The notes under the pieces were generated by a model. The model was not told the origin of the DNA. It did no database searches and was given only the letters and a program-made list of their open reading frames with translations. A stretch of DNA of 64,000 nt from a virus. Of this stretch, positions 4,706-57,096 are shown one piece after another; position 1 is the stretch's first letter; each line of letters opens with the position of its first letter. The translations under genes were made by a program, and so were the position numbers. The stretch lies in IMG/VR virus record IMGVR_UViG_3300021963_000063, positions 1 through 64,000 of that record. One strand, 5' to 3'.

Positions 4706-4889
4706 TTTCTTTTTCCTCCTGTTCCCTAAATTTCATTGAAAGCAACCATACGGCTGTACAAATTAAAACTGCCCACCCTACTACTGTTTTAGCAGACCCA
4801 TCAAGGACTGCCCATGCTACGAACATACCAAGAAGGGTGAATGTTTGGTTTAGTGTTTCACGAAACTTATCTTTTAACCATTTCTTCAT
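4692..4889 (-). CDS. small 2-TM membrane protein
   Basis: Two hydrophobic segments; coupled to the upstream gene. Confidence 0.65.
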   Translation of the reverse strand: MKKWLKDKFRETLNQTFTLLGMFVAWAVLDGSAKTVVGWAVLICTAVWLLSMKFREQEEKENDKE

Positions 4890-26383: not shown

Positions 26384-26393
26384 GAATATTTAA

Positions 26394-26799: not shown

Positions 26800-26859
26800 T
26801 TTACTCCTTAATTGTAGTTACAAATATATAATATCATATTGATATAAAGTTGTCAATAG

Positions 26860-26933
26860 TAGGGTGAGTCAGACTTGAACTGACGATTACCGAATTATGA
26901 GTTCGGGGCTTTAACCAACTAAGCTACCACCCC
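26860..26933 (-). tRNA. tRNA-Met/Ile2(CAU)
   Basis: Cloverleaf; CCGAA-CTCATAA-TTCGG. Not initiator-like. Confidence 0.88.
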
Positions 26934-26939
26934 ATATGG

Positions 26940-26969
26940 TGAGCAGTTTAATGTCTTTGCTCAGGACAC
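26940..26969 (-). other. H-type RNA pseudoknot, copy 1
   Basis: GUGUC C UGAGCA AA GACAU UAAAC UGCUCA. Confidence 0.75.
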
Positions 26970-26972
26970 AGG

Positions 26973-27476
26973 CTAATACCAGCCCTTTTTATTAGAATGC
27001 CCTAAAGCATTACATGGTGTTTTATATCTCCCCTTTATATATTTCAAACCCCACTTAATTTGTGTTTCAGGGTTTGTTCTCCAGTCAGCCCCCATTGATG
27101 CCATCTTTTTGCCTGGCAAGGACTGAGGTATTCCATGTGCTCCAGAGCTCTTATTATGTGCGTTTGAACGCCAACCGCTTTCACGGTTCCAGAGCTTAAC
27201 TAAACAGGAATGTTCTTTTGATCCCCAACGATATTTATCTTGCATATAATAAGCAGCAAACTGTTTGTTATATGCTGGGGTTCCGAAGGCAAATCTTTTT
27301 GCAGATCTTGATGCTGCATTTTGCCTTGTTTCATCTACGTCAGTTGTTCTTACAACTAACTTTACTTTCTGCGGTGCCTCATTAGCACTGGTTTGACTCT
27401 GGGTTACTGGTAGGGATACAACAAATGTTGCAAGAACCGCAATAACGGGAATCAAAACCAAGGTTTTGAATCGCAT
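26973..27476 (-). CDS. secreted lytic transglycosylase (SLT-like), leaderless
   Basis: N-terminal TM/signal; RESGW, AHGIPQSL, WRTNPETQIKWGLKYI; TTGACA-N18-TAGACT-N6-ATG. Confidence 0.88.
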   Translation of the reverse strand: MRFKTLVLIPVIAVLATFVVSLPVTQSQTSANEAPQKVKLVVRTTDVDETRQNAASRSAKRFAFGTPAYNKQFAAYYMQDKYRWGSKEHSCLVKLWNRESGWRSNAHNKSSGAHGIPQSLPGKKMASMGADWRTNPETQIKWGLKYIKGRYKTPCNALGHSNKKGWY

Positions 27477-27516
27477 TATTCTAGTCTAACATGTTTAGTA
27501 TTGACTTGTCAAACTA

Positions 27517-27645
27517 TTATTTATTCTTTGCGTATCCAGTTTTCTTTTTATTCATTGATCCAGGTGTATTATATCCACCTCGATTAGGAACATTTCTAAT
27601 TCTAATTTCTAAAGCTCTTGCAACTTTATCGTGATGCTTACCCAA
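27517..27645 (-). CDS. small basic protein
   Basis: TTG start, MGKHHDKVARALEIR...PGSMNKKKTG. Not in the ORF track. Confidence 0.55.
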   Translation of the reverse strand: MGKHHDKVARALEIRIRNVPNRGGYNTPGSMNKKKTGYAKNK

Positions 27646-27778
27646 TTTGTTTTACTTCCTTCCACATATCTTTTGTATTTTCAATTAATAACATTGCTTC
27701 TATCATTGTCATTTGTAATAATTCTTCTTTATCTAAACCCAAGTGTTCTGCATATCTTAGAATTTTTTGTATCATCAT
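27638..27778 (-). CDS. small hypothetical protein
   Basis: MMIQKILRYAEHLGL...MWKEVKQIG, 46 aa. Confidence 0.5.
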   Translation of the reverse strand: MMIQKILRYAEHLGLDKEELLQMTMIEAMLLIENTKDMWKEVKQIG

Positions 27779-27944
27779 TTTAATTCCGTTTTAATAAATT
27801 CAATAGCATGATCAATTGATCCACCATTTTCTTTAATCCATTCTAATTTATTCAAAATAGTTCTTAAAGTATTTACTCTTACAAAAGCATTTACATTTTG
27901 TAGTTCACGCATTTGATCTCTGTAATAGTATTCATTGTCTGACA

Positions 27945-28187
27945 CTAAATTAAATCCTCTGTTAGTCTTTCAAACTGTGGTAACACTTCTAAATCTTCAA
28001 ACAGTCCCATTTGATTGTGTGGCACAGAAAGATTATCTTCATCTTCATAGTCATCCCATACTGCTGTATACATATCTGCATATGGGTGTGCCATTCTTGC
28101 CATACGTCCAGAAAGATTCATAAGCCTATTTGCAATCCAACGGACTATTGGACCCTTATCAACTTCATGTTCTACTTTAAATTCCAT
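27945..28187 (-). CDS. hypothetical protein
   Basis: ORF in a run of small genes. Confidence 0.6.
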   Translation of the reverse strand: MEFKVEHEVDKGPIVRWIANRLMNLSGRMARMAHPYADMYTAVWDDYEDEDNLSVPHNQMGLFEDLEVLPQFERLTEDLI

Positions 28188-28188
28188 A

Positions 28189-28377
28189 TTAATCCTTTGG
28201 TAATGCTGTCATTGTAGCATAAAAACATTCTGCAAAGTTTGCAGCCTCTACCGCAAAATCTTCCATGTGCATTTCAGTTTCACCTAAACGATTTTTAGTA
28301 TAAGTTCTTAACCCTTTTACGAAAATTTCTGTAAGCTCATCTGTTGATTTAATAAAGTAACTTTTCTTATCAGCCAT
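28189..28377 (-). CDS. hypothetical protein
   Basis: ORF with an SD. Confidence 0.6.
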   Translation of the reverse strand: MADKKSYFIKSTDELTEIFVKGLRTYTKNRLGETEMHMEDFAVEAANFAECFYATMTALPKD

Positions 28378-28386
28378 TGTTTTCCC

Positions 28387-28716
28387 TTACAACAATCCGT
28401 TTAATTCTGCCATCCTGCGAATTGCTGGATAGTGCTGAAAAACATATTGAAGAACAGCTTTTGGACCAGACTCTACTACATCTTTTGTTTGTTGTTCAAA
28501 CGCAATACGTTCAATCTCTTCATGTGTAGCAAAACCCGAAGGCTTAAACTTGGCGGTAGAAAGATCTTTAGTAACCTTTTTAACCATCATATTAATAGTA
28601 TTAGCCCTGTGAGTATATGTCATTTCTTCTGGTCTAATTTGGACTCCGTTACTAGTCCAAAAAATTTCTTCTGTATCAAACATTAAGTTCTCTTTCTGAT
28701 TTGTCATTATATACAT
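28387..28716 (-). CDS. hypothetical protein
   Basis: ORF. Confidence 0.6.
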   Translation of the reverse strand: MYIMTNQKENLMFDTEEIFWTSNGVQIRPEEMTYTHRANTINMMVKKVTKDLSTAKFKPSGFATHEEIERIAFEQQTKDVVESGPKAVLQYVFQHYPAIRRMAELNGLL

Positions 28717-28722
28717 TAAACA

Positions 28723-28875
28723 TTACCATCCTCCAAGACAGTTATTTGAGTGTGTGTGGATCCAGAAGTTGCCTTCTAGATGTTTTCTAGTTGGTGCATA
28801 AAGATCTGTTCCACAAGCACCACAGGTGTGTGACCATTCTTCTGCAAAGAAATCGTATTGAAATCCTCTAGACAT
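28723..28875 (-). CDS. small zinc-finger-like protein
   Basis: Start re-assigned to ATG 28875 (AAGGA SD), because the track's TTG lies inside the tmRNA; CGAC...HTH..C. Confidence 0.65.
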   Translation of the reverse strand: MSRGFQYDFFAEEWSHTCGACGTDLYAPTRKHLEGNFWIHTHSNNCLGGW

Positions 28876-28887
28876 TTTAATCCTTTG

Positions 28888-29140
28888 TGGAGATGTGCGG
28901 ATTTGCACCGCAGTCCTATATGTTTTCAATTATACACTTACACAGCAATATTGTCTAGCCTTTTCTTACATTTTCTTTCATACACGACTTTCTGTTCCTA
29001 TCTAGTCGTCAGACGGCTTTAGTTTATGCAGCTAAAGCGAGGGCAGTTTGTGTTGTGCCGTTTATATTTATTTAGTTTTACAAGTAACTCTCTTGTGCTG
29101 GTGTATAAGTTTCCACATACAGTCGAAACTTTTCATCCCC
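28888..29140 (-). ncRNA. ssrA: tmRNA (compact, ~253 nt), tag (A)GTTQTALALAA*
   Basis: Acceptor GGGGAUG/CAUCUCC with G3.U70; 5' UUUCGAC; 3' GGAC plus T-arm; helix 2 (UGUAUGU/ACAUAUA, UUAUACAC/GUGUAUAA, CAGCA/UGCUG); PK1; tag ORF 29059-29024. Confidence 0.92.
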
Positions 29141-29145
29141 TTGTG

Positions 29146-29175
29146 TGAGTAGTTTAATGTCTGTACTCAGGACAT
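29146..29175 (-). other. H-type RNA pseudoknot, copy 2
   Basis: AUGUC C UGAGUA CA GACAU UAAAC UACUCA; covaries with copy 1. Confidence 0.75.
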
Positions 29176-29181
29176 CGTTTA

Positions 29182-29571
29182 TTAAGGAATCCACATCTTG
29201 AATTCACGAGTAGTAACTGTCATGTCTGACTTACCTGCGTGATAAACTTCAAGACCAACTGGCTGTCCCTTGTTTGCTTTGAAGAACCATGTTCCACTAT
29301 GAATATTATCTAGTCCTAAATCTAGCATTCTTTGACCTGTAAAGTCTGCCTCCTTAGTTCCAATATCTCTGGTAAAACGGATCTTCATGTTTGCTGCTCC
29401 ACCAAGCTCTGCTACATTAATGTAAAAAGCCCAGTTTGCAATTCCTGTAGTCTTTGGAACAATAGAATCTTCTGCTCCAAAGTCTAATTGTGTCCATGTC
29501 TTAGGACGTATTTTTTGTGGTGCTGGTTTAATTTTTGGATCGCCAGCTTTCCAAGATACATATTCGCTCAT
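29182..29571 (-). CDS. hypothetical protein, paralog of 30076-30582 (leaderless)
   Basis: TTGACT-N18-TATAAT-N6-ATG 29571; ends in REFKMWIP. Confidence 0.7.
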   Translation of the reverse strand: MSEYVSWKAGDPKIKPAPQKIRPKTWTQLDFGAEDSIVPKTTGIANWAFYINVAELGGAANMKIRFTRDIGTKEADFTGQRMLDLGLDNIHSGTWFFKANKGQPVGLEVYHAGKSDMTVTTREFKMWIP

Positions 29572-29630
29572 GACCCAATTATAACAAAAACCCTTAACAA
29601 AAGTCAAGGGTAAATGTTATTTTAGTTTGA

Positions 29631-30916: not shown

Positions 30917-30921
30917 TTTGT

Positions 30922-56158: not shown

Positions 56159-57096
56159 TATTCATTAAATCCTAAAACTAAGTAATACTCAATTGTAATA
56201 GGTTCTCCTGCTGATTTTTGGATAGGTGTTGCAAGTGCTGTTCTAGAAATTAATCCGTAGTTTACATCTACGTTATCTGTATCATCAAATTTAATTCCAT
56301 CAAGAACTAATCCAGTTGATGTCATTGTAATTGATATTTTATTTATGTTTGCCCATGAAGGTGCTCCAGTTGCTAGAATTTCATCTTTTGCACAGTTTAA
56401 TATCTGATACCCTCCAGAGGATATTGTAAAAGTTTTTGAGTAAAAGTTTGTATCATTTGTTTCAAACTTAATTAATAAAGTTCCACTTGTACCTGTTGGG
56501 TCAACTGCTAGTTTAAGTAAATCTTTATCACTAAAATCTGTAAAGTTTTTAGAAAATACGGTACTAAAGACTGTTGATCCAGCATCTATGTATACTGCTT
56601 CGTTTCCAATTCTGTATGTGCCATTGGCAATGTTTTCTGAAATCATTCTTGATCCAGTTGTTTTTGATGATAGTTCTTCTACTCCCTCCGTCCAGCCATC
56701 ATCGCTTTCTCCATTAAATAAAAGTAAATCTGAAAATTGAATAATCTGATTTTGGATAGCTTCTGGATAAAGACCAACCTCATAGATTGTGTATTTTAAC
56801 GGATCATTAATTGTTGTTTTAAAAATTAAAGCATCAACATTATCTGTTCTATTTAATGTTGCAAGCTGTACTGGGGATTGACCAATTGAGAACCCCATTG
56901 TATTTAGGTCAATTAACTTATTGGCATTTAGTGCTGGATTTGCTTGACTGTCAACTCCAATAGCAATAGATCCTCCCACTGAAGGAATAAGACCTAGCAA
57001 ACTTTTAAGGATAAGGGATCTTCCAACTACTGTCAAAGCATTATCTTGTTCACATACAAGAGTGTCTCCCTTATAAATTCTATAAAAACCTCTCAT
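56158..57096 (-). CDS. minor tail protein
   Basis: NALTVVG...IAIG...EVGL...K.....I.Y pattern. Confidence 0.65.
   Translation of the reverse strand: MRGFYRIYKGDTLVCEQDNALTVVGRSLILKSLLGLIPSVGGSIAIGVDSQANPALNANKLIDLNTMGFSIGQSPVQLATLNRTDNVDALIFKTTINDPLKYTIYEVGLYPEAIQNQIIQFSDLLLFNGESDDGWTEGVEELSSKTTGSRMISENIANGTYRIGNEAVYIDAGSTVFSTVFSKNFTDFSDKDLLKLAVDPTGTSGTLLIKFETNDTNFYSKTFTISSGGYQILNCAKDEILATGAPSWANINKISITMTSTGLVLDGIKFDDTDNVDVNYGLISRTALATPIQKSAGEPITIEYYLVLGFNE

Follow-up and report, generated by a model that had tools for sequence, protein, structure and literature searches.

Two repeats in a phage genome are copies of a small pseudoknot, absent from Rfam, that lies shortly after stop codons in many phages

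RNase P cuts at the 5' end of tRNA and tmRNA. In MALAT1 and MEN-beta, it cuts at the tRNA-like mascRNA, and an upstream triple helix protects the new end. The nearest look-alike of the element described here is the coremin motif (xrRNA-C), which, like its Watson-Crick variant xrRNA-WCC, is known from eukaryotic RNA viruses (PMC6546385, PMC10520033, PMC10321173; Dilweg, Olsthoorn et al.) and blocks enzymes from the 5' side (PMC10520033, PMC10321173). We analyzed a stretch of 64,000 nt of viral DNA (positions 1 to 64,000 of IMG/VR record IMGVR_UViG_3300021963_000063; in the following, the window), in which two repeats are copies of a tiny pseudoknot that has no Rfam family and is found closely downstream of stop codons in many phages. 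The two copies and their neighbors are as follows.

26940..26969, minus strand: pseudoknot copy 1; stem 1 GUGUC/GACAU, loop 1 C, stem 2 UGAGCA/UGCUCA, loop 2 AA, loop 3 UAAAC
29146..29175, minus strand: pseudoknot copy 2; stem 1 AUGUC/GACAU, loop 1 C, stem 2 UGAGUA/UACUCA, loop 2 CA, loop 3 UAAAC
26973..27476, minus strand: lytic transglycosylase (SLT domain), 167 aa, upstream gene of copy 1; Pfam SLT, E 3.6e-6
29182..29571, minus strand: 129-aa protein, upstream gene of copy 2; no Pfam family
26859..26933, minus strand: tRNA-Met (CAU), 6 nt (CCAUAU) beyond copy 1
28887..29140, minus strand: short tmRNA, tag GTTQTALALAA, 5 nt (CACAA) beyond copy 2
27483..27512, minus strand: promoter-like site TTGACA-18-TAGACT, ending 6 nt before the transglycosylase ATG; consensus match only
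29578..29607, minus strand: promoter-like site TTGACT-18-TATAAT, ending 6 nt before the ATG at 29571; consensus match only
26828..26856, minus strand: promoter-like site TTGACA-17-TATTAT, directly behind tRNA-Met; consensus match only

An earlier reading of the bare letters (the sequence-only reading) had described two near-identical minus-strand pseudoknots, and both were found at exactly these positions. Each is 30 nt long and of the H type, with stem 1 RUGUC/GACAU and stem 2 UGAGYA/URCUCA; the compensatory C-G to U-A exchange ascribed to stem 2 is real in the sequence of both copies. The degenerate consensus (up to three mismatches) gave two matches and none in 100 shuffles, and covariance model R1 assigned 38 bits to copy 1 (E 1.3e-9) and 33.7 bits to copy 2 (E 2.6e-8). 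Two further model matches in the window, at 56386-56425 and 4760-4778, were weak, lacked stem 2, and were set aside. Copy 1 begins 3 nt past the TAG of the SLT-domain gene (26973-27476), and copy 2 begins 6 nt past the first TAA of an in-frame tandem TAA TAA of the 129-aa gene; with the distances to tRNA-Met and tmRNA listed above, this confirms the spacing claimed previously (3-6 nt after the stop, 5-6 nt before the tRNA-like RNA). Likewise as claimed, a scan of the window found no terminator-like site at either knot or between either gene and its tRNA-like RNA. The best promoter-like sites stop 6-7 nt before each ATG of the two upstream genes, a spacing that would fit leaderless genes without proving them; a terminator-like hairpin (29590-29611) overlaps the site at 29578..29607, and the candidate promoter at 26828..26856 marks the boundary of the transglycosylase-knot-tRNA-Met unit.

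Beyond the window, the same genome carries a third copy (G000:C1:96325-96360, plus strand), located 4 nt ahead of tRNA-Asp; this copy and the membership in a very large family had been missed by the sequence-only reading. All three copies in this genome (3/3) directly precede tRNA-like genes, i.e., tRNA-Met, tmRNA, and tRNA-Asp, and they occupy three of four gene-to-tRNA junctions among 146 crude gene ends (P about 8e-6). Elsewhere in this phage, two junctions, those between a gene and tRNA-Thr and between a gene and tRNA-Tyr, are knot-free.

The knot belongs to a large phage family with the consensus NNNC-C-UGAGYA-N-GNNN-(N)AAAC-URCUCA, and its fold is established by covariation. When copies were retrieved without constraining stem 1, all four pairs formed in 188 of 234 copies, involving 31 different tetramers; the same was true of 11 of 234 in the offset control. 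Retrieval without constraining stem 2 gave 39 copies with six of six pairs and one with five, the other matches having 0-4; the exchanges include A-U to G-C, G-C to A-U, and C-G to U-A. Changes on both sides were seen in 9 of 11 pairs. The closing C-G of stem 1 is present in 138 of 140 family copies, the loop-1 C is invariant, and so is AAAC, preceded by U or A (UUAAAC after GACA in both window copies); the loop and stem-2 letters as a whole are nearly invariant among very different phages. Since G-U wobbles on the gene strand are A-C mismatches on the other strand, the knot acts as RNA on the gene strand. A promoter reading of TAAACT at the DNA level was rejected: there is no -35 element, both stems covary, and the G-U wobbles occur on the gene strand only. 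A scan against Rfam 15 returned no covariance-model match at the motif, either at the gathering score or at E up to 10, and a weak match to permuted tmRNA left the motif as an unaligned insertion. We found no phage version of the element in the literature, in a search that was incomplete and does not prove its absence.

Well-formed copies have named hosts in Mycobacterium, Arthrobacter, Bacillus, Streptococcus, Lacticaseibacillus, Synechococcus, and Paracoccus; in a Lacticaseibacillus variant the knot is in a 5' leader. Three copies are regarded as doubtful, namely those of S-CRM01 before gp32 (only three stem-2 pairs), of phiEcoM-GJ1 (G.A in stem 1, within an annotated CDS), and of Vibrio phage D456, which is near consensus but has a C.A mismatch and no upstream ORF. 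Seven strict-pattern matches in bacterial chromosomes, with at best four of five stem-1 pairs and a mismatch at the junction, look like chance.

Coremin and the phage knot have much in common: a closing C-G pair on a short stem, a loop 1 of a single base (C/U in coremin, G in xrRNA-WCC, C in phages), GAG/CUC pairing between loop and spacer followed by A, an A-rich UUAAA(C) linker, a size of about 20-30 nt, and a usual position in 3' untranslated or intergenic regions. Specifically, copy 2 shares GAC-N-UUAAACUAC with coremin, and both window copies have the 4-bp hp1 (NGUC/GACN, here UGUC/GACA) with a loop starting with Y (here C), as well as the spacer (G)UUAAAC. The coremin loop is YGAD or YGNNAD with three spacer pairs (CUAC/CUCA), whereas the phage loop, C-UGAGYA-N(1-2), has 8-9 nt and six Watson-Crick pairs; its GAG/CUC-A core matches that of xrRNA-WCC, but it is longer than any loop tested. 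Stem 2 is a 6-bp Watson-Crick helix in phages, compared with 3 bp or non-canonical pairing in coremin, and 1-2 nt separate stem 2 from the return strand of stem 1. Coremin's second hairpin, hp2, directly downstream, has no enriched counterpart, a hairpin within 0-3 nt being present in 16 of 232 cases and in 17 of 232 in the control window; at the window knots the tRNA acceptor stem 5-6 nt beyond might stand in for it. Finally, the carriers are DNA phages of bacteria, and nuclease resistance is putative in the phage form. To our knowledge, bacteria have no Xrn1.

The arrangement in MALAT1 and MEN-beta is alike in that a long RNA, a protective structure, and an RNase P-cut tRNA-like RNA follow one another with no terminator or poly(A) signal between; here, tRNA-Met, tmRNA, and tRNA-Asp as expected RNase P substrates lie 6, 5, and 4 nt past the copies. 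The phage structure is an H-type pseudoknot, however, with no U-A.U triple helix and no A-rich 3' tract pairing with U-rich motifs; the downstream RNAs are real tRNAs and tmRNA, and most family members have no tRNA. Mitochondrial tRNA punctuation is similar in that tRNA processing separates messages. Bacterial 3' stabilizer stem-loops (terminator hairpins, REP elements) share the gene-end position but are not pseudoknots with near-invariant loop letters, and the phage form lacks a U-run; an intrinsic terminator combines a G+C-rich hairpin with a U-run, in place of which the knot has a C-rich tail. The luteoviral-type frameshifting pseudoknots of BWYV and PLRV are also compact and H-type, with a one-base loop 1 (C), an A-rich loop in the minor groove of stem 1, and a distance of 5-6 nt from the ribosomal A site; unlike them, the phage knot comes after a stop codon instead of a slippery heptamer, and there is no open alternative frame. 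A -1 frameshift stimulator would have such a heptamer 5-9 nt upstream together with an open alternative frame; recoding was rejected, as none of 105 stop-proximal copies has the heptamer, and the -1 and +1 frames close fast (median 10 and 4 codons).

The position rules and context statistics are, like the fold, direct observations, made with a crude ORF caller on contigs many of which are related. A same-strand ORF stop lies within 200 nt in 244 of 267 unique contexts, and the spacer between the stop and the 4-bp stem core measures 5 nt in 34 cases and 6 nt in 22, with only 3 below 5 nt; the next start lies at widely varying distances from the knot (median 73 nt). In the annotated phages Labelle, Molivia, ParMal1, and Edson, the stop is about 5-8 nt ahead of the knot; in Molivia the knot follows an SSB gene and is separated by 2 nt from a tRNA-Gly. 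Relatives of the transglycosylase gene, down to about 53% identity, keep the knot while the downstream partner varies between tRNA-Met, Thr, Gly, or Asn and a promoter; in close relatives, the full TTGACA-17-TAAAAT promoter of a leaderless gene begins 7 nt past the knot. In knot-less relatives the place of the knot is taken by a 17-bp hairpin in L450 and by an intrinsic terminator in L473, a positional equivalence with the bacterial stabilizers. Knots also occur in convergent settings, as in L005 between a 208-aa gene and a 216-aa gene on the opposite strand, and in L231 and L279. A terminator-like hairpin with a U-run follows 2 of 197 knot-bearing gene ends, compared with 396 of 6191 others (OR 0.15, p 5e-4), and the 3' flank is C-rich at +1 and +2, with G at only 2-11% from +1 to +7. 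The proteins encoded on either side vary greatly; a single family recurs, DUF932 (9 of 112 upstream).

The link between stop codon, knot, and tRNA put forward by the sequence-only reading was borne out as an enrichment. A tRNA comes next after 32 of 203 knot-bearing ends, compared with 78 of 6389 others on the same contigs (OR 15), and loci retrieved by a search pattern that does not single out close relatives of the window gave 13 of 67 versus 27 of 2094 (OR 18); only about 11-19% of family copies precede a tRNA, which nevertheless exceeds the rate at other gene ends by a factor of 15-18. The proposed order of mRNA, pseudoknot, and tRNA holds for all three copies here but is not what characterizes the element: in at least 80% of the family, an ordinary gene, promoter, or convergent gene lies downstream. 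Because most copies have no tRNA and the partner varies, coupling to RNase P, the other half of the earlier proposal, is supported in part and would be one application of a general gene-end element.

The explanation that we favor, at somewhat less than evenly balanced confidence, is that a compact, mechanically robust H-type pseudoknot delimits and caps the message just upstream at its 3' end. The knot would sit just outside the reach of a terminating ribosome and would not be melted by translation; once the transcript is cut downstream, 3'-5' exonucleases would trim to the knot and halt, leaving the ORF and stop codon intact. In this phage, judging from its gene order, the message end produced by RNase P is probably capped by the knot. 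Cleavage of these co-transcripts at the 5' ends of tRNA-Met, tmRNA, and tRNA-Asp is expected from the established specificity of the enzyme; each mRNA would then end in the knot plus a tail of 4-6 nt. Exonuclease resistance and a gain in mRNA stability are putative effects of the knot, and the direction of protection (3'-5' or 5'-3') is likewise conjectural. Several observations count against such a cap: coremin acts on enzymes arriving from the 5' side, not the 3' side; control genomes of the host groups encode RNase J, which would fit a 5'-3' target; and there are the knot-free tRNA-Thr and tRNA-Tyr junctions, the 5'-leader copy of Lacticaseibacillus, and one relative (L014) in which the knot lies between two tRNAs with no ORF upstream.

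The main rival of the cap, unlikely in our estimate, is an xrRNA-like block to 5'-3' decay, in which the coremin-like knot would stop RNase J (or scanning by RNase E) arriving from the upstream message and shield what lies behind it, be it the precursor of a tRNA or tmRNA or the following cistron. The critical letters are common to coremin and its Watson-Crick variant, control genomes of the groups of the named good-copy hosts encode RNase J while those of E. coli and Bacteroides do not, and some copies are in 5' leaders. The distance to the upstream stop, however, varies little, whereas that to the downstream start varies widely; the knot is inherited with the upstream gene; terminators are excluded at knot ends; and nothing needs shielding where a knot precedes a convergent gene or the promoter of a leaderless gene. 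Such a block also explains the 15-fold tRNA enrichment poorly, because RNase P frees tRNAs regardless of upstream events, and the copies show no excess of the second hairpin required by coremin (see the counts above). Ribosome helicase geometry is the established basis for the spacing of frameshift-stimulating pseudoknots, which equals the 5-nt floor and 5-6 nt mode observed here, and the knot would lie at the mRNA entry channel with the stop codon in the A site. It could there act as a barrier that keeps post-termination or read-through ribosomes from downstream RNA and tRNA sequence and uncouples neighboring cistrons; coremin halts ribosomes during scanning and is a frameshift stimulator (PMC10520033, PMC10321173). 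We consider this improbable: any structure that has to survive translation would be expected to show the same floor, and terminator exclusion and the copies at convergent gene ends are left unexplained.

Less probable still is a riboswitch- or protein-operator-like binding site for a small ligand or conserved host factor, to which the near-invariant letters and a size and H-type fold like those of small pseudoknot aptamers would point. The diversity of neighboring genes without a metabolic theme, the position behind genes rather than in leaders, and the lack of any Rfam match up to E of 10 argue against it, and similar conservation in coremin has been ascribed to the fold itself (PMC10321173). 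The mutual exclusion with hairpin-plus-U terminators and the copies lying before promoters or at the ends of convergent genes would suit a non-canonical terminator or pause signal; we regard this as very improbable, the tail being C-rich and free of a U-run. Here, moreover, polymerase must read through, because tRNA-Met, tmRNA, and tRNA-Asp lie 4-6 nt behind the knot and leave no room for a promoter.

A long shot is that knot plus CCA mimics a tRNA acceptor arm, the message being processed as if it were a tRNA lying upstream of another in a multi-tRNA precursor: RNase P would cut ahead of the next tRNA, exonucleases would trim to CCA, and the host CCA-adding enzyme could repair the end. Stems 1 and 2 stack to about 11-12 bp, the tRNA-like 3' end of TYMV has the same topology, and CCA directly follows 17 of 30 tRNA-adjacent copies compared with 20 of 232 others, these copies being phylogenetically related. 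Against this, CCA is present at only one of the three copies in this genome, and the phage encodes no CCA-adding enzyme. Were the mimicry real, there would be bacterial-virus mRNAs with a tRNA-like "telomere."

If the cap explanation is true, phages of several bacterial phyla define stable message ends by a 30-nt knot instead of a terminator hairpin, some of them leaving the cut to tRNA processing as a bacterial-virus counterpart of MALAT1 or mitochondrial punctuation, and the small size would make the knot a handy part for stabilizing engineered transcripts. Its key bases are common to a eukaryotic RNA-virus element that stops nucleases and ribosomes, and the knot may be among the few RNA folds that viruses of both domains employ. 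Cultured carriers include Arthrobacter phage Molivia and Mycobacterium phage Labelle.

The two 30-nt minus-strand H-type pseudoknots (knots) that the sequence-only reading had located in the window were recovered both by reading the sequence and by a scan with a degenerate consensus (up to 3 mismatches), which matched these copies only and nothing in 100 shuffles. A covariance model (R1) found a third strong copy in the same phage genome beyond the window; the next-best matches of the model were rejected as members. The copies and adjoining RNA genes are as follows.

26940-26969, minus strand: knot copy 1, 30 nt, read from the sequence
26859-26933: tRNA-Met(CAU), downstream of copy 1 (ARAGORN and Rfam)
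29146-29175, minus strand: knot copy 2, 30 nt, read from the sequence
28887-29140: tmRNA, 254 nt, downstream of copy 2 (ARAGORN and Rfam)
G000:C1:96325-96360 (L398:1503-1538), plus strand, beyond the window: knot copy 3 (covariance model R1)

The fold is that of a classical H-type pseudoknot, with a 5-bp stem 1, a single C as loop 1, a 6-bp stem 2, 2 nt, the return strand of stem 1, UAAAC, and the return strand of stem 2. Copy 1 begins 3 nt past the stop codon of a 167-residue SLT-domain transglycosylase and copy 2 begins 6 nt past the first stop of a 129-residue protein without a Pfam family; from the ARAGORN and Rfam boundaries, the gaps to the RNA genes are 6 and 5 nt, respectively. No terminator-like site was found between gene and tRNA in this region, and the layout claimed earlier (stop codon 3 to 6 nt upstream, tRNA-like RNA 5 to 6 nt downstream, no terminator between) held for both copies. 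Copy 3 lies 4 nt ahead of tRNA-Asp and about 59 nt past a 161-residue ORF, and its stem 2 and stem 1 return are separated by an insert of 9 nt (CCAUACCCA), which is unusually long. The top promoter-like sites of the region stop 6 nt short of each ATG, and a further one lies directly behind tRNA-Met. A high-scoring promoter-like site (TAGACA-17-TATAAT; 28929-28957, minus strand) lies inside the tmRNA gene, in its 3′ third, and is directed at a small gene starting at 28874, such that tmRNA gene and next promoter overlap. The sole good terminator-like hairpin with a U-run in this region (29590-29611, minus strand) overlaps the promoter of the gene at 29571 at its −35 box.

The knot belongs to a larger family. 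An exact-pattern scan of IMG/VR returned 31 loci, and patterns with free stem 2, stem 1, or loops returned at least hundreds more. Over 3.6 Mb of fetched sequence, a descriptor matched 308 copies (267 unique contexts) versus 7 in the reversed sequence. With stem 1 unconstrained, 188/234 copies showed 4/4 pairing, for which 31 different tetramers were used, as against 11/234 for the offset control; with stem 2 unconstrained, 39 copies had 6/6 pairs and one had 5/6, the other matches having 0 to 4. Stem 2 exchanges include UGGGCA/UGCCCG and UAAGCA/UGCUU, and the doubly compensated UGAACA/UGUUCA of a transglycosylase relative (L446), located 6 nt ahead of tRNA-Asn, supports this stem independently. 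When 140 distinct copies were aligned without gaps, both sides varied in 9 of the 11 pairs, while C7, A13, AAAC, and U25 were invariant. G-U wobbles are confined to the gene strand, which argues that the element acts as RNA. The consensus is NNNC-C-UGAGYA-N(1-2)-GNNN-(N0-4)AAAC-URCUCA, commonly followed by C, and the proposed covariance search of Rfam 15 returned no family matching it at E values up to 10.

A same-strand ORF ended within 200 nt upstream in 244 of the 267 contexts, as counted with a crude ORF caller on a pattern-driven, phylogenetically redundant sample. Between the stop codon and the 4-bp core of the stem there is a sharp lower limit: this spacer measures 5 nt in 34 copies and 6 nt in 22, and is shorter than 5 nt in only 3. 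The annotated isolates Labelle, ParMal1, Edson, and Molivia have a stop about 5 to 8 nt ahead of the knot (in Molivia, an SSB gene, the knot, 2 nt, and tRNA-Gly). When a stop codon occupies the A site, the first base pair behind a 5-nt spacer lies immediately past the ribosomal helicase site; the knot thus appears to be placed at the nearest position that escapes melting. Distances to the next start are broad (median, 73 nt), the flanking gene families are diverse, and convergent genes follow in the solid cases L005, L231, and L279. Among the contexts examined, no solid case without an upstream ORF was found except the tRNA-knot-tRNA locus L014.

A tRNA or tmRNA lay within 60 nt downstream in only 30/267 contexts (upstream in 1), so the mRNA-knot-tRNA architecture put forward earlier is not the general arrangement. 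The enrichment expected between stop codon and tRNA was found nevertheless: a tRNA follows 32/203 knot-bearing gene ends versus 78/6389 others on the same contigs (odds ratio [OR], 15), and 13/67 versus 27/2094 (OR, 18) in loci from a pattern unspecific to close relatives of the window, with at least eight different gene/tRNA combinations. These statistics are inflated by related contigs, but their direction is clear. In this genome, four of 146 crudely called gene ends were recognized as gene-to-tRNA junctions, and each of the three copies occupies one of them (P about 8e-6). A tRNA-Thr 10 nt (26384-26393, minus strand) behind its upstream ORF and a tRNA-Tyr/Asn/Arg cluster 5 nt (30917-30921, minus strand) behind its own have no knot, which is therefore not required at every such junction here.

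Terminator-like hairpins are rarer at knots, following 2/197 knot-bearing gene ends versus 396/6191 others. Transglycosylase relatives down to about 53% identity retain the knot, followed by tRNA-Met, -Thr, -Gly, or -Asn or by a complete promoter that begins 7 nt past the knot and serves a leaderless gene; in relatives that lack the knot, its place is taken by a 17-bp hairpin or an intrinsic terminator. In L003, L007, L009, L011, L012, and L038, CCAU follows the knot, and after some 13 nt comes a TATAAT box, which stands about 10 nt ahead of tRNA-Thr; this suggests that the tRNA has its own −10 element, whereas the tRNA-Met of the window phage adjoins the knot directly. Across the family, the 3′ flank (+1 to +7) has C in 56% at +1 and 44% at +2, and G in only 2 to 11%; CCA stands right behind 17/30 tRNA-adjacent copies versus 20/232 others.

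Taken together, the binding to the upstream stop, the independence from what lies downstream, the exclusivity with terminators, the replacement by hairpins in related loci, and the enrichment at expected RNase P sites lead us to propose, tentatively and at somewhat below even chances, that the knot caps the message encoded upstream at its 3′ boundary. The earlier idea of a shield coupled to RNase P would then describe a special, enriched use: cleavage at a downstream tRNA would necessarily leave a naked 3′ end, which a knot located there would cap. Less probable roles are those of a barrier to ribosomes, a binding site for a ligand or protein, and a noncanonical terminator; recoding was excluded.

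The main rival, which we regard as unlikely, is a block to 5′-3′ decay like that of coremin, the xrRNA element of eukaryotic RNA viruses (GUCCGAAGACGUUAAACUAC), which comprises a 4-bp hairpin, a YGAD loop, a spacer ending in CUAC, and a second hairpin, and in whose Watson-Crick variant the loop GGAG pairs with CUCA (PMC10520033, PMC10321173). The sequence likeness speaks for such a block, as both elements have a C-G closing pair, a one-base loop 1, and a UUAAAC linker, and the GAG/CUC-A core of the phage knot resembles that of the Watson-Crick variant; the phage knot differs in its 6-bp stem 2, and a coremin-type second hairpin is not enriched there (16/232 versus 17/232). Also in its favor, the named hosts of good copies, known from a handful of BLAST hits, belong to groups in which the control genomes encode RNase J, an enzyme that E. 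coli and Bacteroides lack. However, a 5′-3′ block accounts poorly for knots next to promoters, between convergent genes, or at tRNAs. It is compatible with a 3′ cap, since a stiff knot could halt traffic from either side. At L128:7633-7662 (minus strand) and in Lacticaseibacillus phages (e.g., OP869845.1), there is a variant in which stem 2 and the linker are unchanged but stem 1 is GGGA/UCUC and loop 1 has 2 nt. With a terminator-like hairpin upstream and an SD-ATG 15 nt downstream, it appears to lie in a 5′ leader and not at the end of a gene.
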